The notes below the pieces were generated by a model. It was not told the origin of the DNA. It saw only the letters and a program-made list of their open reading frames with translations, and searched no databases. From a virus (Duplodnaviria; Caudoviricetes), in the IMG/VR virus record IMGVR_UViG_3300026549_000071, positions 1-64,000 of that record: a stretch of DNA of 64,000 nt, one strand, 5' to 3'. This document shows, one piece after another, positions 19,881 through 43,818 of this stretch. Positions within the stretch are counted from its first letter, which is position 1. Every line of letters starts with the position of its first letter. Position numbers and translations under genes: made by a program.

Positions 19881-19920
19881 AAAAAAGAAAGGAACCGTAA
19901 CTAGAATGATTCCTTTCTTT
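19881..19920 (-). terminator. Cassette 1 terminator with TTCTAGT in its loop
   Basis: Minus strand AAAGAAAGGAATC-ATTCTAGTTAC-GGTTCCTTTCTTTTTT. Confidence 0.75.
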
Positions 19921-19935
19921 GGTCTTTAGATAAGA

Positions 19936-20088
19936 TTAGTTCTTATCTTGACCTTCAAGCTCACGGAGCCTAAGTTGCAGCGTCTTTTCGACGGATACCT
20001 TATAGGCTTCTTTGAGCTGGGCAGTTCTGTCAAACCGCCCTTCGATGGCATCCGGTTTGTGCCACCAATAGAGAAGATCTCTAGGCAT
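19936..20088 (-). CDS. Cassette 1 peptide, 50 aa (MPRDLLYWWHKPDAIEGRFDRTAQLKEAYKVSVEKTLQLRLRELEGQDKN)
   Basis: Missed by the ORF track; AGAAAGGAG RBS; paralogue at 30317-30469. Confidence 0.8.
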   Translation of the reverse strand: MPRDLLYWWHKPDAIEGRFDRTAQLKEAYKVSVEKTLQLRLRELEGQDKN

Positions 20089-20096
20089 GAGGATCA

Positions 20097-20157
20097 TCTC
20101 CTTTCTGCTCCTAGTTCGGGAGCTATGGATGAAGCATTTCTAGTATGCTTCATCCAT
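20097..20157 (-). promoter_or_regulatory. Cassette 1 two-hairpin 5' leader
   Basis: Hairpin 20125-20157 (loop ACTAGAA) and hairpin 20107-20123 (loop CGAACTA), then the RBS. Confidence 0.75.
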
Positions 20158-20233
20158 TCTATTGTATTTATAATATATACTTGAAATTTTGTAATAAAAA
20201 AAAGAAGGACTTGGAAATTTCCAAGTCCTTCTT

Positions 20234-21025
20234 TTATAGGTAAAGACTTACCAATGGTAAGATATAGTTTTGGTAGTTATATCCAATATCAATATTTTCA
20301 ATATCGTCTGTATCTTCTACCTCTAACATTTCATTTCCTTCTGGGTCATATAAGGAATACATGTTTCCTCTAGTTAACATACGATAATATTCGATGGGTA
20401 ATTTCTTTCCTCGATAATTTCGTACGAAATCTCCCAGAATCATACTAGCATCTTTTCGAGAGGTTTCTTTCTCTCGTAACCTGCAAAAGCTCTCAATGAA
20501 ATGCAGGAGATACTTTCCATGATAGTTTTTCACTTCATTGAGAGCATCTCCCTGACCAAGTCCTTTAATATCAATATTACTTGTAATTGTATTGATATAG
20601 AACTCGAGTTTATTGAGCCGAAGGTACGATGTATAGTGATTCTTTCCATTGAATACAACTTCCCCAAAGGTCGTTTCATGACAGAAACGATTACATACAA
20701 AGATAGCATCCTTTTTAATCGAAATGATGTTCTCTTCGTCAAGTTCATTCTTCACAAGAAACCATTTTCTCGCTTCTGAGAAAGCTTTAGATAATTTCTT
20801 TGCAAATTCTTTATCTTTCCTCTGGTAGAGTCCTAGTTGAACACTTCTTGCTTTCTTATCCATCTTATCCAACTGATCTAACTTCTCTTTTGGAAGCAAT
20901 TGAAATTGCTTACAGAGACTTGGACCAGCCGAATGGATATCATATTCTGTAATATCCGTTCCAAATAAAAACTCAATGTTTTTGTTGATCCACAGACTTC
21001 TTTTGTACAGATCTGGATTCAGCAT
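20234..21025 (-). CDS. Divergent family-B DNA polymerase palm-like protein
   Basis: EYDIHSAGPSL resembles motif A (DxxSLYPS) and IISIKKDAIFV resembles motif C (VIYGDTDSIFV), in the right order; no exonuclease domain. Confidence 0.45.
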   Translation of the reverse strand: MLNPDLYKRSLWINKNIEFLFGTDITEYDIHSAGPSLCKQFQLLPKEKLDQLDKMDKKARSVQLGLYQRKDKEFAKKLSKAFSEARKWFLVKNELDEENIISIKKDAIFVCNRFCHETTFGEVVFNGKNHYTSYLRLNKLEFYINTITSNIDIKGLGQGDALNEVKNYHGKYLLHFIESFCRLREKETSRKDASMILGDFVRNYRGKKLPIEYYRMLTRGNMYSLYDPEGNEMLEVEDTDDIENIDIGYNYQNYILPLVSLYL

Positions 21026-22244: not shown

Positions 22245-22361
22245 AAGAAATTCTCCTTTCTCGATAATTATTACCCTTATATAATTATCGCTCTTTTATG
22301 GAATCAAAATAAAAATAGAAGGATCATATATGCATCGTATGGTCCTTCTATTTTTTCTTCC

Positions 22362-22694
22362 TTATCCGAAGAGACTATCAAAGCGTGTATCTTTCTTTGG
22401 ATGAACGACTTTTGTAGATTTGTGAAGCTGTTCATCATCTACACCGTCATACTCCATATGCTTACGATCTTTATCCTGCTGGCGAACGAAGGCTTCTAAG
22501 TCATCTTCGTCGCCTTTTTCCAGTTTCTTGATGAAGGATTTAAAGCAACGTTTCATTGCTTTTTGCACCGCCTTATCTCCGTCATCGTACATCTGGAACA
22601 TGCGACGGAACTTCCCAACAATCATAGGATTGAAGAGAAGTTCTTCCATTGCCTTCTTTTGATCTTTCCTTTTATTCTTCTTACTCATCTTCAT
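22362..22694 (-). CDS. Hypothetical charged protein
   Basis: 110-aa ORF within the minus-strand operon. Confidence 0.6.
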   Translation of the reverse strand: MKMSKKNKRKDQKKAMEELLFNPMIVGKFRRMFQMYDDGDKAVQKAMKRCFKSFIKKLEKGDEDDLEAFVRQQDKDRKHMEYDGVDDEQLHKSTKVVHPKKDTRFDSLFG

Positions 22695-22712
22695 TTTGAA
22701 TATATTCCTTTC

Positions 22713-23348
22713 TTATTCTTCATATGCATCTACTTCTTCCAAACGATTCTTTAGTTTCTTTGGAAGTTTCTTTCTCGTTTGCTCTGAAAGAACCTTGAGT
22801 AAAACCATGGTAGGATCAATTCCAAGTTCTTTCAGCTTATTGATCAGAAGAGTTTTCCGTTGCTTCAAGATACTTATAATCGTATCAGCATCTTGTGTCA
22901 ACTTGCAATCTTTTCCTTTCAAATATGCCTTTGTTGAAATTGTTTTGATTCCGAATTCCATCTCAATGAATTCCTTCATCATCCGGAGGTATTCATATTC
23001 CACTTCTCCAGAAGAGCAAACAAAGAATACATCCTTATCATACAGCATTGCATGACTAATGTATTCATTCAACAGAAACATACATTCTGGCCTCTGCAAA
23101 TGACGGAAATATGCAGATTCATATTCCTTTCCAATGCCATACTTCGTATAGACCAGAATAATAGATGCAGATGGAACCAATGGAACAACATCCATTAACA
23201 TCGCATCATTTGGATACCATTTCTGTTTCATTTCCAGAGAGACATTGATAAACTCTGAAGACTCCAGATCTGCTTTCTCCAGAATCTTCTTGAGTTTATC
23301 CCTCCCTTCTACGTTTACCAAATGCATCATACATTCCTCCATTAACAA
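22713..23348 (-). CDS. Hypothetical protein
   Basis: 211-aa ORF overlapping the kinase stop. Confidence 0.7.
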   Translation of the reverse strand: MLMEECMMHLVNVEGRDKLKKILEKADLESSEFINVSLEMKQKWYPNDAMLMDVVPLVPSASIILVYTKYGIGKEYESAYFRHLQRPECMFLLNEYISHAMLYDKDVFFVCSSGEVEYEYLRMMKEFIEMEFGIKTISTKAYLKGKDCKLTQDADTIISILKQRKTLLINKLKELGIDPTMVLLKVLSEQTRKKLPKKLKNRLEEVDAYEE

Positions 23349-24052
23349 ATTTTAATCTTAATCTTTTTCCCATCATCGCGTGCATGCTGGACGAAATCTT
23401 TCTCATCCTTCCACATGCGATCACGAACCTCAATCGGATCGAACAACTTTCCACAACGAGCACATACCAACTTGGAATAATCATTATTCCATTTGAGTGC
23501 ATTACCACATTTCGTGCAATACATGATCTTTCGATCCAATGGATAAATATAACCATAATCCAAAATTACGATTTCATCATTATTCCGATATCCGAAATTC
23601 GTGAAATTCTTGGAAATGGTTCCCATATCACAAAACAGATAATCCTTAGATAAAATCTCTAAGATATTCCGGATATTCTGTTTCGATTCAATGAACTCAT
23701 CTTGCGTCATGAGATTTACATATTCTGCAACGGCTACGATACCATTGCATTCATATGTCTTTGTGACATACGGCTGAAGTTCTTGACTATAATCAAACTC
23801 TGTCCAATTATCGCGTACGCCATAATTATCAAGAGCAATTTTGAATACATAGTCTTTATTCCGCACGGTCAACCGATTGGTTCCTGGACCAATTTCCGTG
23901 AATCCAAGATCCTTCAGAAGAAAGAGAATCTGACGAACCTTCTCATTATTATTCGAGATATTTGGATCTCTCTGAATCTCCCAAATCTTCTGAAGAACTT
24001 CTTCACTGAATAACTCATGAATCCGATGACGATATTTCTTTTCTTCCATCAT
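23342..24052 (-). CDS. Protein-kinase-like fold protein with C-terminal Zn ribbon
   Basis: IGPGTNR (Gly loop), VFKIA (catalytic Lys), DMGTISKNFTN (catalytic-loop-like), ILDYG (DFG equivalent), CTKC...CARC. Confidence 0.7.
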   Translation of the reverse strand: MMEEKKYRHRIHELFSEEVLQKIWEIQRDPNISNNNEKVRQILFLLKDLGFTEIGPGTNRLTVRNKDYVFKIALDNYGVRDNWTEFDYSQELQPYVTKTYECNGIVAVAEYVNLMTQDEFIESKQNIRNILEILSKDYLFCDMGTISKNFTNFGYRNNDEIVILDYGYIYPLDRKIMYCTKCGNALKWNNDYSKLVCARCGKLFDPIEVRDRMWKDEKDFVQHARDDGKKIKIKIC

Positions 24053-24060
24053 AGACTCCT

Positions 24061-25062
24061 TTACTCCATATTTGCCATCTTACGTAACTGATCTCCAGTT
24101 AATTGGAGCATATCCTTCTCAAACTCTGAGAATGTATGATATTCTCCATTAGCAAATTTCTTCATATAGCTATTGCTCTTCTTATGCTTCTTTTTCTTTC
24201 CATATTTATATCCACCAGATTCCTTCAGTTTCTTCTTACGAATCAACTTACGAGAACCTTTCGAAAGATGCTTCATTCCAACATGAAGTCCAATGCTCTC
24301 CAGATAATCCAGCGTCTGCATCTCATCCATTTGCTCTTTCGTCAGAGAAATGCCTTTATAGAAGACCAGTTTATCTGGGCTCTCTTCTTCATCAAACTCA
24401 TGAAAGTCCTTCTTATGAAGATATTCTTTATACTTGGCTGTGAAGGAAACTTTCTTTGGTTTGTGATACATTTCACGAAGCATTCTCTTACGAGCATCTT
24501 TCTTTGAAATTTTGATGGGTTTGGTACGATTCGTATAGAACTTATTGATCATATCAATCTCATTCGAAATTTGATTTGCTACGTCAGACGAATCATTCAA
24601 ATCCATCTTCATTGGATTCATTCCCTTAATGGGTTTGAAACTGAAAGCAAGTTTTACATGCTTCGGAATCTTCCAATTCGTCGGAATGACTGGCAGACCA
24701 AAATCATAATCACATGGAGTTTCCAATGGCATTCCATCATCAATATATTTGCGATTCTTCTTATTATGCTTCAATTTCGGGCAAAAAGATGGAACGTAAT
24801 CTTTCACCATTCCAATCTGGAACAGGAATTTCAAACGTTTCATTCCACCATATTTATCAATGAGCCATTGACCATATTCCGTATAGATTTCTTTTGCTCT
24901 GCACCATTCCCCAAAATCAGAATATTTCCGTTTCAGAGCTCTTACTTTATTGAGAAGTGGAGTATCTTCCCATTTCTCTTCATCATGATAATCATCTCCG
25001 AAATCATTAACCTGAGATTTGAACTCAGGATGATTCGGATATTCATATTCCTTTACTATCAT
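24061..25062 (-). CDS. Hypothetical Lys-rich protein
   Basis: 333-aa ORF, AAGGAG RBS, TATATATTAT motif at 25102. Confidence 0.7.
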   Translation of the reverse strand: MIVKEYEYPNHPEFKSQVNDFGDDYHDEEKWEDTPLLNKVRALKRKYSDFGEWCRAKEIYTEYGQWLIDKYGGMKRLKFLFQIGMVKDYVPSFCPKLKHNKKNRKYIDDGMPLETPCDYDFGLPVIPTNWKIPKHVKLAFSFKPIKGMNPMKMDLNDSSDVANQISNEIDMINKFYTNRTKPIKISKKDARKRMLREMYHKPKKVSFTAKYKEYLHKKDFHEFDEEESPDKLVFYKGISLTKEQMDEMQTLDYLESIGLHVGMKHLSKGSRKLIRKKKLKESGGYKYGKKKKHKKSNSYMKKFANGEYHTFSEFEKDMLQLTGDQLRKMANME

Positions 25063-25196
25063 TTTATTATAAATCTCCTTTCTTTCATTCGATCTAAATA
25101 AATAATATATATTTTAATCAACTATTGGATTTTCCGTCTGTAATACCATGTGAGTTCGAAGGTAAAAAATAAAAAAAAGAAGCTCCAAACTCTCCA

Positions 25197-25280
25197 CTAC
25201 GTTTTGACCTTCATGAGATTAGAACATGGCATGTATGCACAATCCTGCTGCTCCGTTAGAAACATAAACATATTCCGCAT
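25197..25280 (-). CDS. 27-aa peptide (MRNMFMFLTEQQDCAYMPCSNLMKVKT)
   Basis: Strong GAAAGGAG RBS at canonical spacing; T-run follows the stop. Confidence 0.4.
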   Translation of the reverse strand: MRNMFMFLTEQQDCAYMPCSNLMKVKT

Positions 25281-25424
25281 TTTGATTCATCTCCTTTCGG
25301 ATCATAGTAAAATGCGTCTATGTAAACATCGAGTCCATCGCATTTCTCGATGATTGATACTTATACAATATCTATTCATATATTATGAAAACCGATATTC
25401 CTTTGAAATATATATTATTCATCT

Positions 25425-26356
25425 AGTTACATAGAAATCGATTTTTGATTGACATGATAATAGCGAAAATTGATCTATGAAAATCATGGATATTTAAATT
25501 CGTTGATGCACAAACTTAGACTCAATTTGTCTATATATGGGATAAGTACCATTCAGTACGTGGAAACGTCAAAGACTTTGCGAGTGGGTTGGTGCTATAC
25601 ACGGGTCAATAATTTCGATCTTATCTCGGCAAATGAAGAGTGATCTTCATTTGTTTATCGATTCCTTAATAATTGCTCTTTCTGTCATAGAGAGAATAAG
25701 CATGGAGGAACGAATGTATCCTTCCCATGTAAAATCCTTAAGGATATCCAGAGTGAGGGATCATGAATGGGATAGAGGGCAATCTAAGATTCCAATTGAA
25801 TAATCTTAGGTATTAAAACGTTTCCTCTTGAGCTTCGTGAACTTGCTAGGGAGAAGATTTGAATGGACCTCGATATCGAATGATGAGATCAATGAGTAAG
25901 TCATATTTGGATGATTATGATACGAATAGATATAAGACCAAACGAGCATTCTCATTCGGTTATGATTGGATAAAATGACAGTAGATATAGATCATAAGAA
26001 ATTCGTCGTATAGTAAGATACAGCTTGATTTGTTGGTAGGCAATCATAGTAGAATTTCTTTGGTTAACTCATGATAAAACTCCCGTCATGTATATCGAGT
26101 ATCGTTGCAATACGATACTTTAACAATGGGATGTGTAGATATATACTACCTATCATATCGGTATAATATACAATCTATTTTGGATTTGTATATTCATCGT
26201 TCATTTAAGGTAAAGATGCATTGAAAAGACGCTAGAAAATTATCACTGGTTATTTCATCCTATAGATGAATCTCACAAATAATTTGCCTTAAGGAGAAGA
26301 ACGATTTTAACATACAGAAAATACAAAGGATGGATTCTTTCCATCCTTTGTATTTT
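25425..26356 (+). ncRNA. Candidate large structured non-coding RNA of about 0.8-0.9 kb
   Basis: No ORF of 60 aa or more on either strand; promoter motif at 25409; many stems with GNRA loops; 17-bp terminator at 26318-26356; 5' end uncertain. Confidence 0.6.
26318..26356 (+). terminator. Intrinsic terminator
   Basis: Perfect 17-bp stem followed by a T-run. Confidence 0.8.
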
Positions 26357-26400
26357 TATTTTGGCTTTCACAGTTTAGTATATAGAAGGAGTGTAAGAAT

Positions 26401-26895
26401 ATGAAAGGTAACGAAAAGTTTAAAATGTATACCTTATACGTTGGAAATATTCCAGTTGTATTTTGTGCAGATCGATGGCTAATTGAGCTGTATATTGTAC
26501 AACGGAAGTTAGTCGAAAAGAAGTATCAATTTCATCAGGATACCTATGATACGTCCATGTATAAAGAGTTTGATGATTATCTTGTATACTATTATGGTTA
26601 TGCAGTCACGCAACGAGAGCTTAAATATATCGTCAACTCAACAGAGGAATATGAATCGTTTCGGAAGTATAAGATTCATTCTCTTCAAGGATTTCTAGAG
26701 CGTTTTAATCATACATTAAAGAAATCGGAAAAGAAAGCACTTAAAGAAACGATCAAAATCCTAAAGAAGTATACATGCGAAAATGATGACTTTATTGAGT
26801 CACAGATTGATACCATCCTAAACCATAATGATATGGTAAAGGATTATATGGATGCAACGGATATGTTCCGAATGCATATGGAAGGAGAAATTTAA
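26401..26895 (+). CDS. Hypothetical protein
   Basis: AAGGAG RBS; CACA-N6-TA motif at 26369. Confidence 0.7.
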   Translation: MKGNEKFKMYTLYVGNIPVVFCADRWLIELYIVQRKLVEKKYQFHQDTYDTSMYKEFDDYLVYYYGYAVTQRELKYIVNSTEEYESFRKYKIHSLQGFLERFNHTLKKSEKKALKETIKILKKYTCENDDFIESQIDTILNHNDMVKDYMDATDMFRMHMEGEI

Positions 26896-26896
26896 G

Positions 26897-27706
26897 TTGA
26901 GAGATATTAAACTCATTGCAATTGATGGATTAGATGGAACTGGGAAAACAACCTTTGCAAAATTCTTATCCAATGATCTTCAATCGGATTATTATACGAA
27001 TAAGAAGTATGATGCAAGATACCAGCATTTCCCAGTCTATGAATTACAATCTGGAAAGAAGATCAAAGATTTTCTCTTCCATGAACCAGAACCATACAAG
27101 AGAGAAAATATTCTCAAAATGATTGATCTGCAAGAAACGAATCGAATGGAATGGACAGATCGTTTGATCTGGGATGACGTTTTAGTTCAAGATGACCGTC
27201 CATTGCTGATGATTGCAGATCGTTACATGCGTTCGAATGACATTTACAACGAAACAAGACTTCCGGATTGGAAGGAACGCTGTATCAATGCAGGAGAACG
27301 TGAATATGGAGATCATGCTATTCCAAGACCGGATCTCCAAATTTTTTGTTACTGTAACAGAAATCTTCAACGGAAGCGTTTAGAAGCAAGAAAGAATTTG
27401 GATCAGTATGAAGCATTAGATCATCTAGATGAACTGAATGATCGTTATATTACTTATTTGAAATGGTATATGACGATTGATCGTTTCAAGAGAAATACGG
27501 TATTTATTCCCATGCACTTATTTGATCGAGAATTTCTGAAAGAATCTCTGGATAATAAAAAATGGAATACGTACTATAAGGAAATTTTGAAAGATTACCT
27601 TAGTATTTTCCGTAAGTACATTCTTTCTCAGGAAACGAAAGAAGAATTCGTGAAAGAAATCAATGAACTCCATGAAGAAGAATTCAATGCTTACTTGGAG
27701 TCATAA
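26897..27706 (+). CDS. tmk: Thymidylate/dNMP kinase-like protein
   Basis: IAIDGLDGTGKTT P-loop and IADRY motif; TTG start behind GAAGGAG. Confidence 0.75.
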   Translation: MRDIKLIAIDGLDGTGKTTFAKFLSNDLQSDYYTNKKYDARYQHFPVYELQSGKKIKDFLFHEPEPYKRENILKMIDLQETNRMEWTDRLIWDDVLVQDDRPLLMIADRYMRSNDIYNETRLPDWKERCINAGEREYGDHAIPRPDLQIFCYCNRNLQRKRLEARKNLDQYEALDHLDELNDRYITYLKWYMTIDRFKRNTVFIPMHLFDREFLKESLDNKKWNTYYKEILKDYLSIFRKYILSQETKEEFVKEINELHEEEFNAYLES

Positions 27707-27792
27707 GAGTAGTTTATTAACAGCAAGAAACAAAGCATTAGGCAGTGTTTCTTGCTGTTGTTTCTCTACTACGGAAAGGATGTCAGAAACCG

Positions 27793-28560
27793 ATGAGGAA
27801 AATGATTCAAATTCATACCATTGGAGATGCTAATGTTTTAAACGCGTCGGTCCAAAATCCACCTGCAAGTTTTTATTTCATTGAGGGAAACGTTCTTTTT
27901 TTATTCGAGTATTCTCCCATGTGCGATGAATATATCCGTCTTCATAAGAAGGAATTCAAAGCATTGAAGGATATTATTCTCTGTTATACATCTCCAGTTT
28001 ATATGAATGGAGTACAAGTACATCACTCAACCTTAGTACATGAATTCATTGAAGGAGTATTTCATTGTATTGATCATCATGATCGAATTCATGTACGCTT
28101 GATGACTGTATCTCCAAATTCGAATCCAATTATTATTGATTATGAAAAGCAAAAAAATGTCATTACTGAAAGAAATATTACGTCACAAGATCCCAATGCA
28201 AATATTGTATTTACGAATGAAAGTATCCTCTTTGTAGCAATGGATACCATATATACAAAGAAAGGATATTCTACCATTACCATTTGGAAACAGATGGAAG
28301 AAGGATATTGGAGTTGCCTTCTTCACTATACGGGCCGTTTTGGATCCTTGAATGAATACACAGTAAAGTTCTTAATGGAACATCCACATGCGATTCTTGT
28401 GTATTATATCAATCGTTCGTTCTACAAATCAGATCATAACTTATCAGTAAAGGAACTCTGTTATCGAATTATGAATACCTTCGATGATATGAGAAATCCC
28501 ATCACCTTGCTTGGATTTACGAATCCAAACGAGGCAAAATTTATTCGTGAGAGAATGTGA
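27793..28560 (+). CDS. Hypothetical protein
   Basis: Long ORF within the plus-strand operon; start approximate. Confidence 0.65.
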   Translation: MRKMIQIHTIGDANVLNASVQNPPASFYFIEGNVLFLFEYSPMCDEYIRLHKKEFKALKDIILCYTSPVYMNGVQVHHSTLVHEFIEGVFHCIDHHDRIHVRLMTVSPNSNPIIIDYEKQKNVITERNITSQDPNANIVFTNESILFVAMDTIYTKKGYSTITIWKQMEEGYWSCLLHYTGRFGSLNEYTVKFLMEHPHAILVYYINRSFYKSDHNLSVKELCYRIMNTFDDMRNPITLLGFTNPNEAKFIRERM

Positions 28561-28619
28561 TGCTATGGTAAGTTAATGATCTGCCGCTTTATATCGTCAC
28601 CGGAAAGTGAGTCACTGAT

Positions 28620-28961
28620 ATGAAAATGAGTAAGACCAAACAACGAAAGGAATTGATCCTTCAACGTAAAAAAGATAAATATGGATATTTTGGTCTGTTC
28701 CGGATAGAAGAGGTTTATCCCTTCCAATTGTATATGCAAAGGTATAAGCACTTCAAACTAGCTGTAACCCAAGGAAATGAACTCATTCATATGATAAAAG
28801 ACGGTTTACACGTCATTGTATGGTACGATGAAAAACTGCGGCAATGTTGCTCGAATCGATATGGAATGTGCATGTGGTATGTTTACCATACGTTTGATGA
28901 AGAATATATGGAAGACTTTTTAGCATATGAAAAGGAGCATGAAATTTATTATGCAATCTAA
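28620..28961 (+). CDS. Hypothetical protein
   Basis: 113-aa ORF overlapping the thyX start. Confidence 0.6.
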   Translation: MKMSKTKQRKELILQRKKDKYGYFGLFRIEEVYPFQLYMQRYKHFKLAVTQGNELIHMIKDGLHVIVWYDEKLRQCCSNRYGMCMWYVYHTFDEEYMEDFLAYEKEHEIYYAI

Positions 28962-29823
28962 AGTTAATGTAAAACGAGTAGGAAATGGTGAAGTTGTTTT
29001 AATTGCTGGTGGTGGAAAAGTATACAGCGATATTGCAGCAAGGTTCTGTCGTACGGAGAAAGATGTTCATGATATCATTGCATCTCCGTATAATAAGAAA
29101 CTGGTTCAAACTATTTTGGATTCTGGTCATTATGCTGCAACAGAATTTGACTACTTCATCTTTGGAATCCAAGGTTACTCTCGTGTAACCGAAACTCAAT
29201 TGGTTCGCAAGCGTTTAGCCAGTTATTTGATTAAATCTGGTCGTGCAGAAGAGCACGGGAAACGAAACTTTGATGTTGTTCTTCCGAAAGATCAGAGATT
29301 ATTGGATCTTCCCAGAGGAGAAGTTCATCTGGATCCATCTCAAGTGATTGTGGAATATAAAGATGGAGTTAAGATCTCTTTGGAACAGGTGGTTCCATGT
29401 TCTACAGCAGAAGTGTATCTGAATAGTGCACAACTGTTAGATGCAATGGCATCATTCTATGATGATGCTGTGTTGAATCATGGAATTAAAGAAGAAGACG
29501 CACGTTACTTTAAACCTCAAGCAACGGAGTTCAAAGCAATTATTGGAATGAATGCCCATGCATTACGGGATTGGTTTAAGATTCGTTGCTGCAATCGAGC
29601 ACAATCTGAAATCCGTGATCTTGCATGGAAAATGCTTCGTTTATGCAAAGAAGCTGCTCCAGATCTCTTTGAAGGTGCTGGACCTAGTTGTGTTGCACTT
29701 GGTCTTTGCCCAGAGATGGAACAGTGTGAGCAGAATAAAGGAAAGATTCCTACATTGAAAGCATTTAAAGAAGCAAAAAATACGAAAGAATACAAAGACT
29801 TTGCAAAAGTCATGATGAAATAA
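28951..29823 (+). CDS. thyX: FAD-dependent thymidylate synthase ThyX
   Basis: GHYAATEF, SRVTETQLVRKRLASYLIKSGR (RHRx7S-type motif), EDARYFKP, MNAHALRDWFKIRCCNRAQSEIR. Confidence 0.9.
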   Translation: MQSKVNVKRVGNGEVVLIAGGGKVYSDIAARFCRTEKDVHDIIASPYNKKLVQTILDSGHYAATEFDYFIFGIQGYSRVTETQLVRKRLASYLIKSGRAEEHGKRNFDVVLPKDQRLLDLPRGEVHLDPSQVIVEYKDGVKISLEQVVPCSTAEVYLNSAQLLDAMASFYDDAVLNHGIKEEDARYFKPQATEFKAIIGMNAHALRDWFKIRCCNRAQSEIRDLAWKMLRLCKEAAPDLFEGAGPSCVALGLCPEMEQCEQNKGKIPTLKAFKEAKNTKEYKDFAKVMMK

Positions 29824-30246
29824 AAAAGATACCATAGATACGCCACCAACGTATCTATGGTATCTTAGTTGTTTTTGAGTTAATAAGAACGACTCCAACG
29901 AAAAACCAAAATTCCCGAAAACAATTGAAATCGCCCTTATATTTCTCTGACGAAACGATAAGGAATGAAGCAAAATTATCTACGTGATGTATTGCCATGA
30001 CCTCAGTCGTTTTTACTCGCCATTTGTTTGTGAGTTCTACCTACGTCATCTTAGATTTTAAACACATCCAATCTAAAAATCTTTACGATCCCACCCAAAG
30101 ATCGTTTTCAATAGAACTTTCAGTCTTTAATTTTTATCTTCACACATTTATCGAAAGCTTTCAATAGTATGTTTACACTAATTAAAAAAATTTACATCTT
30201 CATCCTATGAACTTTCATTTCATGTATATATTATTACCATAAGATA

Positions 30247-30307
30247 ATGAGCTAAGCATACTAGAAATGCTTAGCTCATAGCTCCCGAACTAGGAGCAGA
30301 AAGGAGG
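30247..30307 (+). promoter_or_regulatory. Cassette 2 two-hairpin 5' leader
   Basis: Hairpin 30247-30279 (loop ACTAGAA), hairpin 30281-30297 (loop CGAACTA), then AGAAAGGAGG; promoter motif at 30225. Confidence 0.75.
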
Positions 30308-30316
30308 ATCACCCAA

Positions 30317-30469
30317 ATGGATAAATCCATCCTCTATTGGTGGCATAAACCGAATGCCATCGAAGGGCGTTTCGATAGAGATGCCCAATTGAAAGAGGCT
30401 ATTGAACAAGTAAAGCGTGCACAACGTTTATTCGATAGCCTTGAGGAGAAGGATAAGAAAGTTTCTTAA
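30317..30469 (+). CDS. Cassette 2 peptide, 50 aa (MDKSILYWWHKPNAIEGRFDRDAQLKEAIEQVKRAQRLFDSLEEKDKKVS)
   Basis: Missed by the ORF track; clear paralogue of 19936-20088. Confidence 0.8.
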   Translation: MDKSILYWWHKPNAIEGRFDRDAQLKEAIEQVKRAQRLFDSLEEKDKKVS

Positions 30470-30481
30470 TCCTTAACTCAG

Positions 30482-30521
30482 AAAGAAAGAAGCTATTCTA
30501 GTTACGGCTTCTTTCTTTTTT
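30482..30521 (+). terminator. Cassette 2 terminator with TTCTAGT in its loop
   Basis: AAGAAAGAAGC-TATTCTAGTTACG-GCTTCTTTCTTTTTT. Confidence 0.75.
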
Positions 30522-30584
30522 GTCTGTAGTATTTTAAAAATTCTTTGAAATATATATTATTAAAGTAACAGGAGGTGAAAACCT

Positions 30585-31085
30585 ATGTTTATTCTCTTGC
30601 TATCTGGAACTGATATTGTCAGTTCTACCTATGAAGCAAATTTAAGAGAATATGCTCGTTTATTGCGGATAAAGAATCCTATGATCTATCAAGTCACAAA
30701 TCAGCAATATGATACGATTTGCAAGAAATATCGTTACGTTGAATCTGTGGAAAAGCAATCAGAAGAAAAGAATCCTCTTTACTGTACGGATTCTGATCTA
30801 GAAATGATTAGCAATGTCATGGAAGATGACCTAACGAAATTTGCATTGAAATTGCATAAAGTTGAAAAATGGACTTCGATGTTTCGTGGAAAATCTGCAA
30901 AACGACTAAGAAAAGCAATTCATGCTTTTCTCAAAGAACGAGTCGAAAACAAAGAATTTTCAATTGATGAATACGATGAAGTAGGAAGATTGATGGAAAA
31001 AGTCAAACTTCGGGATTATGCAAAATCAATCCTCAAACGTAGTTATAAAGACGTTTATGGATTAGGAGGAGAAGAAGATGCTTGA
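30585..31085 (+). CDS. Hypothetical protein
   Basis: GGAGGT RBS; TATATATTAT motif at 30551. Confidence 0.7.
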   Translation: MFILLLSGTDIVSSTYEANLREYARLLRIKNPMIYQVTNQQYDTICKKYRYVESVEKQSEEKNPLYCTDSDLEMISNVMEDDLTKFALKLHKVEKWTSMFRGKSAKRLRKAIHAFLKERVENKEFSIDEYDEVGRLMEKVKLRDYAKSILKRSYKDVYGLGGEEDA

Positions 31086-31632
31086 CCCCGATGAAAAACA
31101 AAAACTTCGTCCGTATTATTTTCGAATGTTAAAACGACTCGGTTGGAATGTGGTTTACGATAATAACAAGAAGCTGACGAATACATTGGTTGATGTATCT
31201 CTTATGCTTCAAAGGGAGAAAGAGGATGATAACCATAAGAAACATACGGAGTATGGATTCTTAGAGGTTCCTTATACGTCTCCCTGTTCATATGAAAAGT
31301 TTGGAGAGCAACGCCTTCATCCGAATAATGGAGAATTTGCAAAATTGGTCAACTACGTTGATAGCTTAATTTATCCATATGATTTGGACGACGTTGTGTG
31401 TCAGTTGCTTCACTTAGGTTATAGTATTACACAGGTTTATACGGTACAAAACGGAAAACTTGCGTTAAAACTAAACCGAAAGATGATTGAAGGACTGATT
31501 GCAGACTTCGTTAAGAAGGGTTCTCCCTTACTGAATAATGAGCAACTTCGTAGACCTCACAAAATTAAAGAGCGTCGACCAATCAAGACATTTGTAAATC
31601 CAGATGTCTTCTTTGGTCGTAACTCCCAATAA
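31078..31632 (+). CDS. Hypothetical protein
   Basis: 184-aa ORF coupled to the upstream gene. Confidence 0.7.
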   Translation: MLDPDEKQKLRPYYFRMLKRLGWNVVYDNNKKLTNTLVDVSLMLQREKEDDNHKKHTEYGFLEVPYTSPCSYEKFGEQRLHPNNGEFAKLVNYVDSLIYPYDLDDVVCQLLHLGYSITQVYTVQNGKLALKLNRKMIEGLIADFVKKGSPLLNNEQLRRPHKIKERRPIKTFVNPDVFFGRNSQ

Positions 31633-31669
31633 ATTTTTAGTAGTTTTTAGAAGAAGGAGAAATGTAGTC

Positions 31670-31975
31670 ATGGCTAAGAAGAAAGAACAGAAATTCCTCA
31701 AGAAGCTCCGCAAGAGCGTTTTCAACAGTCGCAGCGAACTTGCACAATACATCGCTGACGACGAGGACAAACGTTGGTACAAGGAAAAGAAGGAAGATAT
31801 CAAAGATCTCACAAGGGATCTCATCAATGATCCATTCCAGATCATGAAGAAAGATCCTTCCAACCCAGAGCTCATGAAACCGACGGACGTGAAAGAGCTT
31901 GCTCTTCGTGTAGCACAGCATGAGAAGCTTTTGCTTGCTCTTGCATATTGCTACATTTACGAGAACAATAAGTAA
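31670..31975 (+). CDS. Small basic hypothetical protein (MAKKKEQKF...)
   Basis: AAGGAG RBS, biased codons, terminator downstream. Confidence 0.7.
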   Translation: MAKKKEQKFLKKLRKSVFNSRSELAQYIADDEDKRWYKEKKEDIKDLTRDLINDPFQIMKKDPSNPELMKPTDVKELALRVAQHEKLLLALAYCYIYENNK

Positions 31976-32836: not shown

Positions 32837-32880
32837 AAGAGTTCTTCAGCCTTTCGAGTATATATTATATACTTAATAAA

Positions 32881-32938
32881 ATGGATCAAGCAGACTAGAA
32901 CTGCTTGATCCATCGTTCCCGAACTAGGAACAGAAAGG
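32881..32938 (+). promoter_or_regulatory. Cassette 3 two-hairpin 5' leader
   Basis: Hairpin 32881-32913 (loop ACTAGAA), hairpin 32915-32931 (loop CGAACTA), then AGAAAGG; promoter motif at 32859. Confidence 0.75.
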
Positions 32939-32950
32939 CTGGTGAGTCCC

Positions 32951-33094
32951 ATGACTAAGGAATCCCCTTGGGAGAAGTTACTCCCAAATGAAAAACTTGT
33001 CCCCACAAGTTTGACAAAACAGGCGATCCTTGATTGTGCTGACGTTCTGCGTACGCATAAAATGATTCGCCTGATTCCTGGATGGTGTAAATAA
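32951..33094 (+). CDS. Cassette 3 peptide, 47 aa (MTKESPWEKLLPNEKLVPTSLTKQAILDCADVLRTHKMIRLIPGWCK)
   Basis: Missed by the ORF track; occupies the same slot as the peptides of cassettes 1 and 2 but is unrelated in sequence. Confidence 0.65.
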   Translation: MTKESPWEKLLPNEKLVPTSLTKQAILDCADVLRTHKMIRLIPGWCK

Positions 33095-33110
33095 CACTAT
33101 TTAGGAAATG

Positions 33111-33147
33111 AAGGAAGAAGTATTTCTAGTATGCTTCTTTCTTTTTT
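33111..33147 (+). terminator. Cassette 3 terminator with loop exactly TTCTAGT
   Basis: AAGGAAGAAGTAT-TTCTAGT-ATGCTTCTTTCTTTTTT. Confidence 0.75.
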
Positions 33148-33258: not shown

Positions 33259-33633
33259 ATGGCAAAATATATTATGAATGCGGTCTCTGGTAACATGTTC
33301 GATCTCAGCAAGGAATTCGATCTTTGCTGGAAGCCATTGAGCTTGAACGATGTTAAGAAACTTCTGAAACAGGGGGACTGGAAGTCCGTGCTCGGGCACG
33401 ATGACATCGCAAATCTTTTGAGTGAAATGACCGGTTATCATCTTGAGAAAAACCGTGTCAATAATACGCTCGAATTCGGTGATAGTGCAATTCTTGCACA
33501 GTACAAAGGGCCGAGACTCGAAGAGGGAGCGACGAAGCTTCCGAAAGGTGCAACTATCCAGTTTGCACTCGTGTATCCCGCAGAGCATATTAGCCGCCAA
33601 TATATTGGCAACGGTGAAACGCTCGAAGGATAA
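33259..33633 (+). CDS. DUF1874 / STIV B116 / YddF-like small protein
   Basis: YIMNAVSGNM...SVLGHDDIANLLSEMTG..LEKNR....GD......PRLEEG matches my recollection of that family pattern. Confidence 0.65.
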   Translation: MAKYIMNAVSGNMFDLSKEFDLCWKPLSLNDVKKLLKQGDWKSVLGHDDIANLLSEMTGYHLEKNRVNNTLEFGDSAILAQYKGPRLEEGATKLPKGATIQFALVYPAEHISRQYIGNGETLEG

Positions 33634-38858: not shown

Positions 38859-38949
38859 GGAGCGGTACTCAAGCGGTCGAAGAGGTCAGTCTTGAAAACT
38901 GAGAGACCATTCATTTGGTGCGTGGGTTCGAATCCTACTCGCTCCGCCA
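38859..38949 (+). tRNA. trnS: tRNA-Ser(TGA)
   Basis: Acceptor GGAGCGG/TCGCTCC, anticodon loop CTTGAAA, long variable arm, TTCGAAT T-loop, encoded CCA. Confidence 0.92.
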
Positions 38950-38955
38950 TTTTAT

Positions 38956-39029
38956 TCTGGCGTAGTTTAATGGTAAAGCACTTCCCCTCCAAGGAAGATT
39001 TGTGGGTTCAATCCCCATCGCCAGATCCA
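38956..39029 (+). tRNA. trnG: tRNA-Gly(TCC)
   Basis: Acceptor TCTGGCG/CGCCAGA, loop CCTCCAA, U discriminator, encoded CCA. Confidence 0.9.
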
Positions 39030-39035
39030 TTTTAT

Positions 39036-39111
39036 AGCCCTTTAGCCAAGTTGGTAAAGGCATAGCGCTTTGACCGCTAGATCGCTGGTTCGATCCCAGC
39101 AAGGGTTGCCA
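39036..39111 (+). tRNA. trnQ: tRNA-Gln(TTG)
   Basis: Acceptor AGCCCTT/AAGGGTT, loop CTTTGAC, encoded CCA. Confidence 0.9.
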
Positions 39112-39115
39112 TTTT

Positions 39116-39186
39116 AGGGTCATAGTTTAATGGTAGAACAACGGTCTCCAAAACCGTTAGTCATCGTTCGAGTCGATGTGATCCTG
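39116..39186 (+). tRNA. trnW: tRNA-Trp(CCA), 3' CCA not encoded
   Basis: Acceptor AGGGTCA/TGATCCT, loop CTCCAAA, T-arm CATCG-TTCGAGT-CGATG. Confidence 0.88.
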
Positions 39187-39310
39187 CACACATGCCCCAA
39201 TTAAGGGACTTTATATATGTTAGATGGTAATTTCATTTTGTTTGACAAATTTCTGAACCGCTCTTTGCTCATGGATCTCAGAAATACTCCCTTTCATGAA
39301 ATTACTTTCT

Positions 39311-39362: not shown

Positions 39363-40523
39363 TTATCCTTTTTCATACATATCTTTCAACTGATGTTTCA
39401 ACTCTACAAGGAGTTTCTGTGAAAACATCGTTGGAAGAATACCAATCGTTTGACGTGCAAGAACCGATGTTGCAGGAATGCAAGACTCAATTGGCTCATT
39501 TGGACGATCAAGAGTATAGGGAGCTTGATCATCTGGAATGACCAAGGCTACTGTTCCTTTCAAGGCCAGATGATGAGCCATTTTGTCACCAGGTTTCATA
39601 TTATCAGTAAATTTGATATAGAACTCAATGATGACTCCGTGTTCAATCTTATATCCTTTGACAGCACCTGCTGCATTTGGTTTTACAGGTCCATCAATCT
39701 CATAGAAGGTACTTCCTTGATCGGATGGATCGGTAATCTTATATTTCCGAATCAGTTTCTTCTTCTCACGAATTCCCTTCCAGTATTTATCAACGATACT
39801 ACCAAGAGATTTCGAGAGATCAGAGATTTCTTCTGTGCTATAGATGCGAATCTCATCTACAACCCCAGAGTATTTTGAGCTCAACGTATTCTTTGCCATG
39901 GATTTAATATCTTCCCGAAGATCTTTACCAATACCACGGAGCAAGCGGTTTACGGATTCTTCATCTGCGGATTGCTCATACGTAATTAATGGCTGACCAA
40001 CGAGAATCTTATCTCCGACGTTTACAATCTGGGATACCGTAGCATTCGGACCAAGAATGAGATGCTTTTGCATAACCATCTCCGTTCCCATACGTTTACT
40101 TAAACCTTCCGTAATCATATTGGAATCTTCAAAGGTCGCAAATGAACTCATAATGGCAATCTTAGAAAGCGTACCAAGATTGAACTTGGCTCCATCATAA
40201 TGATAGCTATAGTAATCCTTATTCTGTGCGAGAATATCATCTTTCTTAAAACGTTGACCTACCTTATACATAGGCAACATCTTATTTTCCAGATAGAATC
40301 CACCACCGGCATTCTTCACCATAATGCCATTCAGATTAATGGCTTCATATTTCCCATTCTTATATTCTGCTACCATCATATTCGTCTTTTTATCAAATTC
40401 CACAATTTTACCATCGTCCTGTGCTTTAATGACAAAGTCTTTCGATGCCATATAAGGCATCGCTTTTTCAATGCCAGTAGATAACAGAACCGGGCACATA
40501 TCTTTTACTGGAATCAAATGTTT
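39363..40523 (-). CDS. rpoB: Phage RNA polymerase beta (large piece), exon 2
   Basis: TFEDS (GYNFEDS equivalent), PGDKMAHHLALKG (GDKMAGRHGNKG equivalent), ends after VLARQTIG; joins exon 1 in frame. Confidence 0.88.
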   Translation of the reverse strand, partial: KHLIPVKDMCPVLLSTGIEKAMPYMASKDFVIKAQDDGKIVEFDKKTNMMVAEYKNGKYEAINLNGIMVKNAGGGFYLENKMLPMYKVGQRFKKDDILAQNKDYYSYHYDGAKFNLGTLSKIAIMSSFATFEDSNMITEGLSKRMGTEMVMQKHLILGPNATVSQIVNVGDKILVGQPLITYEQSADEESVNRLLRGIGKDLREDIKSMAKNTLSSKYSGVVDEIRIYSTEEISDLSKSLGSIVDKYWKGIREKKKLIRKYKITDPSDQGSTFYEIDGPVKPNAAGAVKGYKIEHGVIIEFYIKFTDNMKPGDKMAHHLALKGTVALVIPDDQAPYTLDRPNEPIESCIPATSVLARQTIGILPTMFSQKLLVELKHQLKDMYEKG

Positions 40524-40821
40524 CGTTGTATTCACATGGGTCGTTAATCCATGCAGTTCTCTTATGAACTTCTATATGTCACCATATAGTCCAGACTATA
40601 TCTTTATTCCTATTACTAGGAATTGCTCCATTTCGATTTAAGGGATTTTCACCCACTCACTTGAGCCCTACTCCTATTGCCGAATTTCACGGCTCCATTT
40701 GGATAGTCGTTGAACCTTCTCTTTCGAGCTTGGCTGCTGATTGTCTCTTTTTAAATAGAGAGTTCCCAGCAATTAAGAGCTAGGAGAATCATAGATTACT
40801 CTATGAAACGAACTAAATTTA
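40524..40821 (-). mobile_element. Group I self-splicing intron (IA-like, 298 nt, no homing endonuclease ORF)
   Basis: P AAUUGCUGGGAAC (40762-40774), Q GACAAUCAGCAGCC (40732-40745), R UUCAACGACUA (40704-40714), S AAGAUAUAGUCU (40593-40604); 5' exon ends in U, intron ends in G; splicing restores ASKQN-KHLIPV. Confidence 0.92.
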
Positions 40822-43818
40822 ATTCTGCTTCGAGGCCATAGCGGTACGAATGGCATCATCCATGGTAACACCAATGCCATTCACAAGTTCCGAATAACCA
40901 AAGAGTTTCGTCTGATCCATTTGATCAGGAGATTCTTTGCAATCAATGAAACCTCTTGTATTGGTTACTTTCGGATCAATGGTCAATTCACGTACCACAC
41001 CACAGTTTGCATCTGGAGATGTACTAATCGTCATACAGCCAATCATCGTTTGATCAAAGCAACGTTTTTCTTTTGTATAAGAACGTTCTAGGTTGATACC
41101 AGAAGGTCCTTTACATGTGATTGCACGTTCCTTTTCTTTTTCTGTGATTGGATTAATGATTGACACATCTTCTACGACGTTACTCGTCAAGATTTCTTTG
41201 ATGATAGCATCTTTCGGTAACGAAATCTTTTCTGGTGTTGCATATTTTGCCTTACGTTTGTAATTGGAGTATGATGCAGAAAGTGCTTTATAGAGATAAG
41301 CACTAATCATTTCCAAGTTACGTACACGGAATTCTGTTAAGGAAAGTTCCGATGAGGAAGCATTATCCGACAGAAGATCGGACGCTGCAAGCATCAATTG
41401 TACGAAATCCGTAGGCAAATCCATTTGCTTTAAGATCTCTTCACTGATTGGATCAATCATATTATCATAATACGCATCCAAACCAGATGCCAATGCACGA
41501 TTGCTATACTTCATATCAAAGAAATCCAAGTATGGCATTTGTGTATCGAAATCAGAATAGTTATATGCTTTCGTATCAATAAATGTCAATCCGCTCATAA
41601 GAAGAGAATGAGCCGTTGGAGTTAAGCTGTATACGAGATACCCATCTGCGAACTGAATGGCTGCTTGATCAACTCCAAGATCTCTCGGATTCTTATCCGT
41701 AAAATGATACTGAATACCTTCCTTATTCATGACGGTTGTTAAACCTTCAAAATAGCTAAGGAAGATAATACTCGGAATCATCTTATTCATAACCTTGCAA
41801 GCAGAATACATGAAACGCTTACCTGGTTTATCTTTTGGACCTTGAAGATCCCAGAAGTTCTTTCCAGTTTCTTTCTCATAGATATGAACGAATGTATCAA
41901 TAGGTCCATTTAACGTTTCTTTTCCATCATCTTTTTCCGTTCCATCGGATTCAATGGGACAGACGTATGCTTTTATCTTTGCATTCTCACGTCCATCATA
42001 AACACAGTAAATGTATTTATCATCATTGATATCTTCCAGTTTCTTATCATGGCGAAGTTCATCATAGAACTTTTGATCAAACTTCAAACCGATTCCTTTT
42101 CCACGAATGGTAATCCCTGAGAATTCTTTTGCAAGAGAATCATACTCAATCGAAGTCATATGACCATTATTGACACCCATACCATTTCCTCGTTTTACCT
42201 TGAAAATGGCAGGATTATTTGCAATGATTTTCTTGAAGATCGTTACCTTCGGAGAAACTGTATCGCCTAAACGATATACAAAGATCTTATTATAGTTCGT
42301 GCAAACCTGAACACGATCCGCAGAGATTTTAATCAACGGTTTCAAAATCTGCTGATTGACGAATTGCTTTCTGTTACCAGCAAGATAGAGATAGTTGTTA
42401 TCATAGACCTTAGGAATATCTACCGTGACACTGTGACGAACTCCATCTTCCGTCTGAAGTTTTACCGTCCAAGTTTCCTTCAGATCCATTGCAGTTGATG
42501 TATCTTCACGTTTGATGTTCGTAATCACAGCAGGAAGATTTTTCTTCTTATTCAGGGAACGAAATACATTGATGATATCCTTATCCTTGACGTTTTCATT
42601 ATACGATTTATTGATGTTATCGAAACGAATTTTCTTTACGCTCTTATTTGGCGTAAAGAGTTTATCCGAGATATCGTCCGATTCAATCGTATAATCAATC
42701 TTTGAAGTATCTTCCAAATCTCCTAAGGAGATATTATCCAACTTCAGTTCTTTCTGTTTCTGACGAAGTGCTTGAAAACGTTTATTTTCCGGAGCTGTAC
42801 GATTCATCTCCTGAAAATTCGTATCAATGGCTTTCTTCGCCAATTCCATCTCATCTTCAGTAAGTTCTTCATGTGTTTTGACAGGATCTTCCTCTGTAAG
42901 ATCTGCCTTTGGTTCTTTTTTATCAACGATTGTAGTCGATGCAGGAGTAGGAACTGCACGAGGAGATGATTTATCTTCCTCTTCTTTTTCCTTCTGCTGA
43001 ATCTTTTCAACTTCTTTTTCTTTCTCGATTTTCTCTTCTTCCGTTTCTGGAGAGAGATCCAAATTGATTTCTTTTGATTTGCATTTATTCATGCAAGAAT
43101 AGAGTTTCATACTGATTTCTTTTTCCGTATGACTCATATCCCAGTAGAACAAACCAAACGTATCATCGAGAATAATCAATGTATAATCCTTTAATGGCTC
43201 TAAACCTTCAGGATCTTTCTTTAGGAGTTCATAAAACATTGAAATCGGATTCATCATCTTCTGATTAATGCTCATGACTTTCGAACGATTACTGGTACTA
43301 ATTCCCCACGATTTCGTATCCAAAATCAGGTAACGGTGTTCATGGTTCAATCCAGCACAAACTGTTTTCAGGTAACGAGCAAGATGCCGCACATACGATT
43401 TGCAGAGTATGGGATAATTCTTTCCCTTAGAATGTTCCAAGAAAGCACTATTTACATCACTCGTATCCACAAAGATATTCTTATTACGAACTCCCGCTGG
43501 TTTCGTATAGAGTGTTAATTTGAGTTTCTTTACATCATTCGACAGTGTTGCGATTTCACTTGCATCCATCTTTTCACGGATGGTTGTTGTGAAGATCTTA
43601 TCCGTATAACGAAACGGTTTATAATACCGAGCAAATTTAGAGTCTCGATACAGTAACAGATTCTTCAAGATATCTGAACACTGTGTTGGGTTTTTAATCA
43701 AGAGACCAATGAAAGTTCCTTCCAAAGGTTTCTTTGGATCATATGGGAGTCGGGTAAGTGTGGTCTTATATTTCAATTCACCATAGTCTTCCAGTTTATT
43801 CGCCATATGAGAATTCAC
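40822..43818 (-). CDS. rpoB: Phage RNA polymerase beta (large piece), exon 1; spliced product 1385 aa
   Basis: RAITCKGPSG, STSPDANCGVVREL and DDAIRTAMASKQ align with RpoB LGPGG, ETPEGPNIGL and DDANRALMGANMQ; long N-terminal extension. Confidence 0.88.

Follow-up and report, generated by a model that had tools for sequence, protein, structure and literature searches.

A candidate 5'-3' kissing-loop RNA module on four early micro-gene units of an uncultured AR9/PBS1-like jumbo phage

Why should the loop of a terminator hairpin be the exact complement of the loop of a hairpin at the other end of the same short unit, and why should this hold in every copy of that unit? The question is raised by three small early gene units, cassettes 1 to 3, within a 64,000-nucleotide (nt) stretch of viral DNA (the window) with which a 74-kb IMG/VR virus record begins (IMGVR_UViG_3300026549_000071; G000), and by a fourth cassette in another record (IMGVR_UViG_3300032007_000084; G001). 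Each cassette carries near its predicted 5' end a hairpin, H1, with the loop ACUAGAA, and closes with a terminator hairpin whose loop contains UUCUAGU. Judged from their covariation, the leader and terminator hairpins are functional RNA elements, the stems of which drift by compensatory change while the loops are held fixed. Our leading explanation for the complementary loops, to which we assign a probability of roughly 40%, is an intramolecular 5'-3' kissing complex. Kissing in cis appears to fit best because the 7-nt loops are fully complementary and exposed in the predicted folds, and because the sole natural loop variant keeps a wobble pair.

The two records overlap at their ends (G000 73145-74252 with G001 1-1109, ~99.5% identity) and hence represent adjacent pieces of the same or a near-identical phage, ~139 kb when joined; accordingly, the cassette in G001 is a fourth paralogue rather than an orthologue from another lineage. 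A scan of G000 and G001 found hairpins with these loops in the four units only, and all copies follow a common plan: a promoter, 6 nt, the predicted +1 A, ~6 nt of single strand, H1 (a stem of 13 base pairs, bp), 1 nt, a second hairpin (H2; 5-bp stem, loop CGAACUA), the ribosome-binding site (RBS; AGAAAGG) directly after H2, an open reading frame (ORF) of 47-53 amino acids (aa), and the terminator with its U-tract. The individual features are as follows.

20170..20179, minus strand: cassette 1 early promoter motif TATATATTAT (motif scan); the predicted +1, inferred from the motif, is the A at 20163
20125..20157, minus strand: cassette 1 H1, 13-bp stem, loop ACUAGAA at 20144-20138 (folding, covariation)
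20107..20123, minus strand: cassette 1 H2, GCUCC/GGAGC stem, loop CGAACUA; the RBS AGAAAGGAG then follows
19936..20088, minus strand: cassette 1 ORF, 50 aa, of the LYWWHKP..IEGRFDR family (53 aa if the start is the ATG at 20097)
19884..19920, minus strand: cassette 1 predicted intrinsic terminator, 13-bp stem, loop AUUCUAGUUAC, U-tract; TTCTAGT at 19906-19900
30225..30234, plus strand: cassette 2 early promoter motif; predicted +1 at 30241
30247..30279, plus strand: cassette 2 H1, loop ACUAGAA at 30260-30266; four compensatory stem pairs vs. cassette 1
30281..30297, plus strand: cassette 2 H2, with the RBS after it (folding)
30317..30469, plus strand: cassette 2 ORF, 50 aa, paralogue of the cassette 1 ORF (third-position changes)
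30482..30518, plus strand: cassette 2 predicted terminator, loop AUUCUAGUUAC; TTCTAGT at 30496-30502
32859..32868, plus strand: cassette 3 early promoter motif; predicted +1 at 32875
32881..32913, plus strand: cassette 3 H1, loop ACUAGAA at 32894-32900; two compensatory pairs vs. cassette 1
32915..32931, plus strand: cassette 3 H2, GUUCC/GGAAC stem, a compensatory change vs. GCUCC/GGAGC
32951..33094, plus strand: cassette 3 ORF, 47 aa, with no relation to the cassette 1 and 2 ORFs (third-position excess vs. L012 and L013)
33110..33144, plus strand: cassette 3 predicted terminator, 14-bp stem, 7-nt loop UUCUAGU at 33124-33130
G001, ~54.5-54.8 kb: cassette 4, same plan, encoding a paralogue of the cassette 1 and 2 proteins

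The terminator stems of 13-14 bp are followed by 6 U (7-9 U in the variants L025 and L018) and lie 15-29 nt past the stop codons; that is, with a stable stem-loop and a U-tract downstream of the stop, they are predicted to be intrinsic (Rho-independent) terminators. At the other end, TATATATTAT followed by 6 nt and an A is present in all three window cassettes and is a predicted early promoter of the AR9 virion RNA polymerase (vRNAP) type. The early promoter consensus of AR9 has been mapped experimentally as AAATATATATTAT-(6N)-+1, with a purine at +1 (PMC5312081), and TATATATTAT is its core, with 20 perfect copies in the window, mostly upstream of RBS-led genes (motif scan). Similarity between the cassettes starts at this generic early promoter and stops at the terminator U-tract, and these limits indicate a duplicated transcription unit, with no transposon-type terminal-repeat boundary. 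As far as sequence can tell, the unit is therefore a self-contained early transcription unit, which has been copied at least four times and bears one of two cargos. In our reading, the copies are paralogues, small early gene units of the moron kind whose RNA module is under selection.

The evidence that the hairpins are maintained as RNA comes from folding and from covariation. Folding z-scores range from -4.6 to -5.5 for the leaders and from -3.3 to -4.1 for the terminators, and H1, H2 and the terminator hairpin recur in folds of the whole transcripts (273-284 nt), with the loops of H1 and the terminator unpaired in the minimum free energy (MFE) structure. Among seven distinct leader sequences, every pair cell of the stems holds a standard pair (126/126) and six pairs have changed on both sides; this covariation score was reached by none of 500 shuffles (0/500), and slid controls contained no double changes. 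Three further pairs with both sides changed are found in the terminator stem. The loops, on the other hand, are identical at seven of seven positions, in both hairpins, across the four paralogues, and are also constant in the relatives L007, L008, L010, L012, L018 and L024. The sole natural variant of the H1 loop is in cassette 4 of G001, where ACUAGAA has become AUUAGAA; this replaces a C-G with a U.G pair, i.e., pairing is kept, and cassette 4 in other samples (L007, L008, L024) retains the loop C. Further, L012 and the window show no difference over the 58 nt that run from H1 to the RBS, vs. 84% identity over the surrounding 637 nt. That the stems covary while the loops stay fixed argues that the loops are under selection.

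The two loops are also well matched to each other. ACUAGAA of H1 and UUCUAGU of the terminator would form 7 bp at a computed -6.0 kcal/mol (-7.2 kcal/mol including flanking bases), and in the predicted MFE folds of the whole transcripts both loops show the complementarity of ~6-7 nt and the exposure expected of kissing loops. The initial annotation had noted TTCTAGT in all three terminators as the complement of the H1 loop ACTAGAA, and this and every other sequence that it quoted was recovered at its position. The same annotation had proposed that the terminator loop could also pair with H2 over 8 bp including one G.U, and inspection bore this out for AACUAGGA of H2 with UUCUAGUU; an H2 segment shifted by one base (GAACUAGG) gives -5.9 kcal/mol. 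The heptamer TTCTAGT occurs nine times on the two strands of the window, a number in line with chance (9.7 expected), and six of these nine occurrences are cassette loops. Of 62 candidate terminator hairpins collected from the window in a crude survey, only three had the loop UUCUAGU, i.e., the cassette terminators, in agreement with the earlier observation that other terminators lack it, and we estimate from base composition that a given 7-mer would fall within a loop of 7-11 nt with a chance of ~1e-4 to 5e-4. Since the cassettes are paralogues, their copies are not independent trials, and fixed loops amid covarying stems are a stronger argument than copy counting. Terminator 3 was also said to have a core that matches, in reverse complement and with one mismatch, the H1 core of cassettes 1 and 2, and this is indeed the case for the H1 19-mer (33118-33136; 0.03 matches expected at up to three mismatches), the leader covariance model scoring the antisense strand of terminator 3 at 30.4 bits. 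However, both hairpins are self-complementary and GAAG/CUUC stems are common in the terminators of this phage, and thus the extended match of 19-21 nt is less remarkable than it may seem.

How, then, might the two loops act? Under the kissing hypothesis, the H1 loop, ~20 nt from the predicted 5' end, would pair with the terminator loop ~235 nt downstream, and a ColE1-like 7-bp kissing complex would close the short mRNA into a loop, with H2 (AACUAGGA), which abuts the RBS, providing an alternative docking site for the terminator loop. Closure would shield both RNA ends from exonucleases and would bring the stop codon beside the RBS, and either effect would tune the output of the early micro-protein, with translation either raised or lowered. 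It is the transcript start and end, the kiss itself, its action in cis and its effect on stability or translation that we infer here. The same loops could also join the four transcripts head-to-tail. A broader and more doubtful proposition is that a portable leader-terminator RNA module, closing each early mRNA by a 7-bp kiss, is the phage counterpart of the closed-loop mRNA of eukaryotes.

The natural distribution of the module is narrow. The leader and the units gave no Rfam match in a scan of the window and no DNA match to the phage collection with megablast or blastn, and scans of IMG/VR and of JGI metagenomes for the exact patterns recovered only the same phage (G001/L016 and L018), apart from chance hits without the hairpins in L004, L015 and L017. 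A covariance model of the leader (R1) scores the four units at 93-95 bits and found no credible match in AR9, LPJP1, S6, phiR1-37, BpSp or two other IMG/VR relatives; its match in phiR1-37 was rejected as the antisense strand of an annotated terminator, and those in BpSp as weak palindromes. By these searches, the RNA module is a lineage-specific invention. The samples that yielded L007, L010 and L018 suggest an animal-gut origin. What the comparisons support directly is the anatomy of the unit, the hairpins (through covariation), the invariance and complementarity of the loops, the coding ORFs and the restriction to one lineage.

Two contigs depart from the common plan. Over 11 kb (window 20566-31856), L018 and the window share 94-97% identity, and cassette 2 of L018 (L018:1336-1526, minus strand; window 30241-30524) lacks ~75 nt (window 30317-30391), a deletion by which the ORF loses its start codon and the 25 conserved codons with which it begins; the promoter, both leader hairpins, i.e., H1 (with a single change, to a G.U pair) and H2, and the terminator loop are all retained. 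This hints, with the limited weight of a single contig, that the RNA ends can outlive the peptide, and that the variant without its ORF may be an RNA scaffold with a role of its own early in jumbo-phage infection. L013 (1.2 kb; 785-1224) carries the cassette 3 ORF from its sixth codon together with the UUCUAGU terminator, placed after unrelated DNA with no H1 or H2, its upstream neighbour being an unrelated, divergent gene of 261 aa; L013 represents either a recombinant context or another phage. An ATTAGAA word upstream of the L013 ORF was considered as an equivalent of the leader and rejected, being located within a long-range stem and not in a loop. It had been suggested at the outset that homologues with non-complementary loops would speak against pairing; L013 departs from the pattern by having no leader at all, and the sole loop variant keeps a G.U pair.

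Several observations weigh against the kissing hypothesis. The 7-bp kissing helix has just two G-C pairs; instead of covariation between the loops there is a single loop substitution, all copies coming from one narrow phage lineage; in L013, a single contig with little context, the 3' loop persists with no partner in cis; and the palindrome CUAG is common to H1, H2 and the terminator loop, meaning that the same pattern could result from a loop-binding protein or simply from a terminator hairpin that began as H1 copied in inverted orientation. The main rival, albeit unlikely in our view, is that the CUAG-loop hairpins (H1, H2 and terminator) are bound by an RNA-binding protein or endoribonuclease of the phage or its host, with the complementarity a by-product of a palindromic core and of a terminator hairpin that arose as an inverted H1 copy. 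ACUAGAA, CGAACUA|G and UUCUAGU all contain CUAG, the leader has two same-sense copies of ACUAGRA 29 nt apart, an arrangement typical of dimer binding, and the GAAGC/GCUUC-type upper stems shared by H1 and the terminators are compatible with common descent. Beyond the 4-nt core, however, such a protein would encounter differing sequences, whereas three flanking positions are complementary as well (A/U and AA/UU) and the match reaches 8-9 nt with H1 or H2 (energy calculation and inspection); nor was a candidate protein identified, and the neighbouring genes have no RNA-binding Pfam or PHROG annotation. An improbable variant of the pairing itself is that it takes place in trans, the terminator of one cassette kissing H1 or H2 of another, which would produce head-to-tail links or make cassette 3 act antisense-like on cassettes 1, 2 and 4. 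With H1 of cassettes 1 and 4, terminator 3 can form a 21-bp duplex that includes one G.U, and with H1 of cassette 2 a duplex of 19 bp, compared to 17/19 with its own H1 (inspection); its antisense strand is matched by the leader model, as noted above, and the terminator loop of L013 has no cis partner. Yet partners tethered in cis at ~235 nt would out-compete those in trans unless concentrations were very high, the extended match is largely the GAAG stem generic to the terminators of this phage, and the stem of terminator 3 has drifted in L010 and L012 (ATGCCTC) irrespective of H1 in the other cassettes. The sequence permits pairing in trans or head-to-tail just as well as in cis, and nothing specific favours it.

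Three explanations remain. It is distinctly improbable that the module has no specific function and is a frozen accident of the first unit, spread by duplication, with hairpins that serve only as a generic 5' stabiliser and a terminator. This would be in line with one ancestor in a single narrow lineage, i.e., a pattern that arose once, and with the presence of a 5'-proximal hairpin also before a tubulin-like gene (G001 61.7 kb), but it does not explain nine double-changed stem pairs next to seven of seven positions fixed in both loops of four paralogues; a generic stabiliser or terminator needs no fixed loop, and the loops of the other terminators are varied. We give little credence to a role at the DNA level, with the inverted ACTAGAA hairpins serving as the ends of a mobile cassette, as recombination sites or as operators of a DNA-looping regulator. 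The site is inverted at the two ends of each unit, the four copies are dispersed on both strands with two cargos, and in L013 the cassette 3 ORF and terminator are joined to different upstream DNA; on the other side, a double-stranded DNA-binding site leaves the compensatory stem changes unexplained, and every copy is oriented with the hairpins in the sense transcript. The initial annotation had offered cassette ends recognised by a recombinase or HUH transposase as one of its alternatives, and this part of its interpretation is not supported, whereas the part that concerns the hairpins and their loop complementarity stands as real, selected and specific to the units. No Y1/HUH, tyrosine or serine recombinase (PF01797, PF00589, PF00239) is present in G000 and G001 (139 kb), a verdict that is not final since ~45% of the genome lies outside these 139 kb. 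No empty site or different cargo, the polymorphism expected of mobile cassettes, was seen at the three loci, where L010, L012 and L018 hold cassettes, and a by-eye look at the flanks of cassette 1 showed no target-site duplication. Moreover, the similarity between copies spans promoter to U-tract and the inverted similarity inside one cassette is limited to the 7-9 nt loop, while the ends of IS200/IS605-type elements are alike on the same strand, not inverted. Least credible to us is that the RNA itself is the product, a decoy or sponge with structured ends directed, e.g., against RNA-guided or RNA-sensing host defence, with a dispensable peptide. Cassette 2 of L018 lost its ORF start and kept both RNA ends, and directly after cassette 3 comes a gene for an AcrIII-1-like ring nuclease (PF08960), an anti-defence neighbourhood; however, the L018 deletion may be recent, the other ORF copies are under protein-level purifying selection, and the H1 core is in no CRISPR array of 185,579 species genomes, with two single-copy chance matches to the 19-mer. 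A more specific form, an RNA anti-CRISPR mimicking a solitary repeat, was rejected, since the H1 19-mer is in no array and the CRISPR likeness of the peptide is an artefact (below), although the host is not identified, which limits this test.

With respect to the proteins, cassettes 1, 2 and 4 encode paralogous peptides with a conserved N-terminal half (LYWWHKP.AIEGRFDR) and a variable, charged C-terminal half. Substitutions among copies and relatives fall mainly at third codon positions (e.g., 4, 1, 9 and 3, 3, 12 for the three positions), an excess indicating that both ORF families are real coding genes. AlphaFold2 (AF2) models the peptide of the cassette 1/2/4 family essentially as a single long helix, with a predicted local distance difference test (pLDDT) score of 74. 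Nothing usable was found for the peptides in PHROGs, Pfam or the protein atlas, homologue searches with both peptides returned close relatives only, and tblastn of the small protein against the phage collection gave no match. A profile search did return two apparent long homologues, P0013 and P0014, which we rejected as artefacts: they are spurious ORFs that cover CRISPR arrays in an organism rich in GC, the summing of identical repeats has inflated their E-value, and the nucleotide identity is only 61% (hand count). The P0013 locus (L035:900-2600) has 23 copies of a 36-nt repeat and adjoins cas1, cas2 and cas4; more generally, 'proteins' of public collections that are translated from CRISPR arrays inflate E-values for short queries. 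Directly downstream of cassette 3 (33259-33633, plus strand), a gene with its own promoter-like motif encodes a 124-aa protein of the PF08960 family (STIV_B116-like, AcrIII-1 ring-nuclease family; E 2.3e-10). By this annotation, the setting of cassette 3 is a possible anti-type-III-CRISPR neighbourhood.

The phage that carries the cassettes is related, through a conserved 263-aa protein (tblastn), to the jumbo phages AR9/PBS1, Staphylococcus S6, Listeria LPJP1 and Yersinia phiR1-37, and by this relationship the window is part of an uncultured AR9/PBS1-like jumbo phage. It also encodes ThyX, thymidylate kinase and the AcrIII-1-like gene, and an Rfam scan of the window returned four tRNAs and a group I intron only. 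The tRNAs form a cluster (38859-39187, plus strand; Ser-UGA, Gly-UCC, Gln-UUG and Trp-CCA); the idea that the terminator loop mimics a CUA anticodon loop was dropped, since the phage tRNAs are for Ser, Gly, Gln and Trp, with no suppressor. The group I intron (40572-40830, minus strand; Rfam 90.7 bits) lies between the long minus-strand ORFs 39363-40535 and 40819-43818, a pair that resembles one split large gene. The protein encoded at 48930-50864 (plus strand), 644 aa long, has a Cpn60/TCP-1 chaperonin domain (E 3e-23), i.e., it is a phage GroEL-like chaperonin. At 25409-26356 (plus strand), an early-promoter motif is followed by ~900 nt with no long ORF and by a strong 16-bp terminator at the end (26318-26356), and neither ACTAGAA nor TTCTAGT is present in this region. 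Finally, at L022:1690-1785 (G001 ~61.69-61.79 kb, plus strand), a further early promoter has directly after it a 12-bp 5' hairpin, with another loop sequence, ahead of a tubulin/FtsZ-like gene (assigned from the N-terminal motif alone); 5'-proximal hairpins are thus not confined to the cassettes, in contrast to the ACUAGAA loop.

To our knowledge, regulation by a 5' end that contacts the 3' end of its own mRNA has been described for bacteria and phages in very few cases, such as icaR and hok, and we know of none among these in which a terminator loop is the partner or in which the contact is a reusable module on several genes. ColE1 RNA I/RNA II is an established case of 7-nt loops that pair completely with each other. 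Similar to this system and to CopA/CopT of plasmid R1, the cassettes have two stable hairpins with fully complementary 7-nt loops, and an interaction starting loop-to-loop is predicted. Unlike these antisense pairs, which come from opposite strands of one locus so that complementarity is automatic, the cassette loops are ~235 nt apart on the same sense transcript, where complementarity needs selection, and their interaction is a predicted one. The mRNA of hok (hok/sok) shares with the cassettes 5'-3' pairing in a short message for a peptide of ~50 aa, but the cassettes have charged peptides, predicted as single helices, no overlapping antisense gene, and loop-loop rather than end-to-end duplex pairing. 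A hok/sok-like toxin was itself considered and rejected: the peptides are charged, a small hydrophobic membrane toxin is missing, and no antisense promoter-terminator unit was seen at the cassettes. In the pRNA of phi29, as possibly here, complementary loops on one RNA species could join molecules head-to-tail; pRNA is, however, a non-coding packaging RNA that forms a defined ring through 4-nt loop pairing, whereas the cassette RNAs are mRNAs with no known ring-forming geometry. The ermC and aprE leaders are 5'-proximal stabiliser stem-loops of Gram-positive mRNAs. Like them, the cassettes have a strong hairpin within a few nt of the 5' end (H1 starts ~6 nt after the predicted +1), although such stabilisers need neither a fixed loop sequence nor a complementary 3' loop. 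Phage morons and the early units of AR9 resemble the cassettes in being small genes with their own promoter and terminator between other genes, and the cassette promoter is the AR9 vRNAP consensus; but morons are not known to share a structured leader that is conserved, or to end in a terminator with a matching loop, and AR9 and four other related jumbo phages lack the leader. A further likeness is to icaR of Staphylococcus aureus (a Firmicute), where pairing between the 5' and 3' untranslated regions (UTRs) of one mRNA affects translation and RNase III cleavage (PMC3868564). In both icaR and the cassettes, a motif at the 3' end is complementary to the message's own 5' leader near the RBS and an effect on translation and stability is proposed. 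In icaR, a linear UCCCCUG motif within a long 3' UTR pairs with the Shine-Dalgarno (SD) sequence itself (PMC3868564), in contrast to the cassettes, where hairpin loops are used, including that of the terminator, pairing does not directly cover the SD, and four genes carry the module.

In conclusion, kissing loops, 5'-3' UTR pairing and moron-like units are known, and what is new here is a lineage-restricted RNA module on four early micro-genes. Should the kiss prove true, it would mean that the loop of a terminator hairpin can hold regulatory information, and the module would represent a compact, transplantable device of ~65 + 40 nt by which short genes could be tuned in their stability or translation. 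In addition, the cassettes point to four early micro-proteins that had not been annotated before in this uncultured AR9-like jumbo phage and, because one of these adjoins an AcrIII-1-type ring nuclease gene, the micro-proteins are candidate host-takeover or anti-defence factors.

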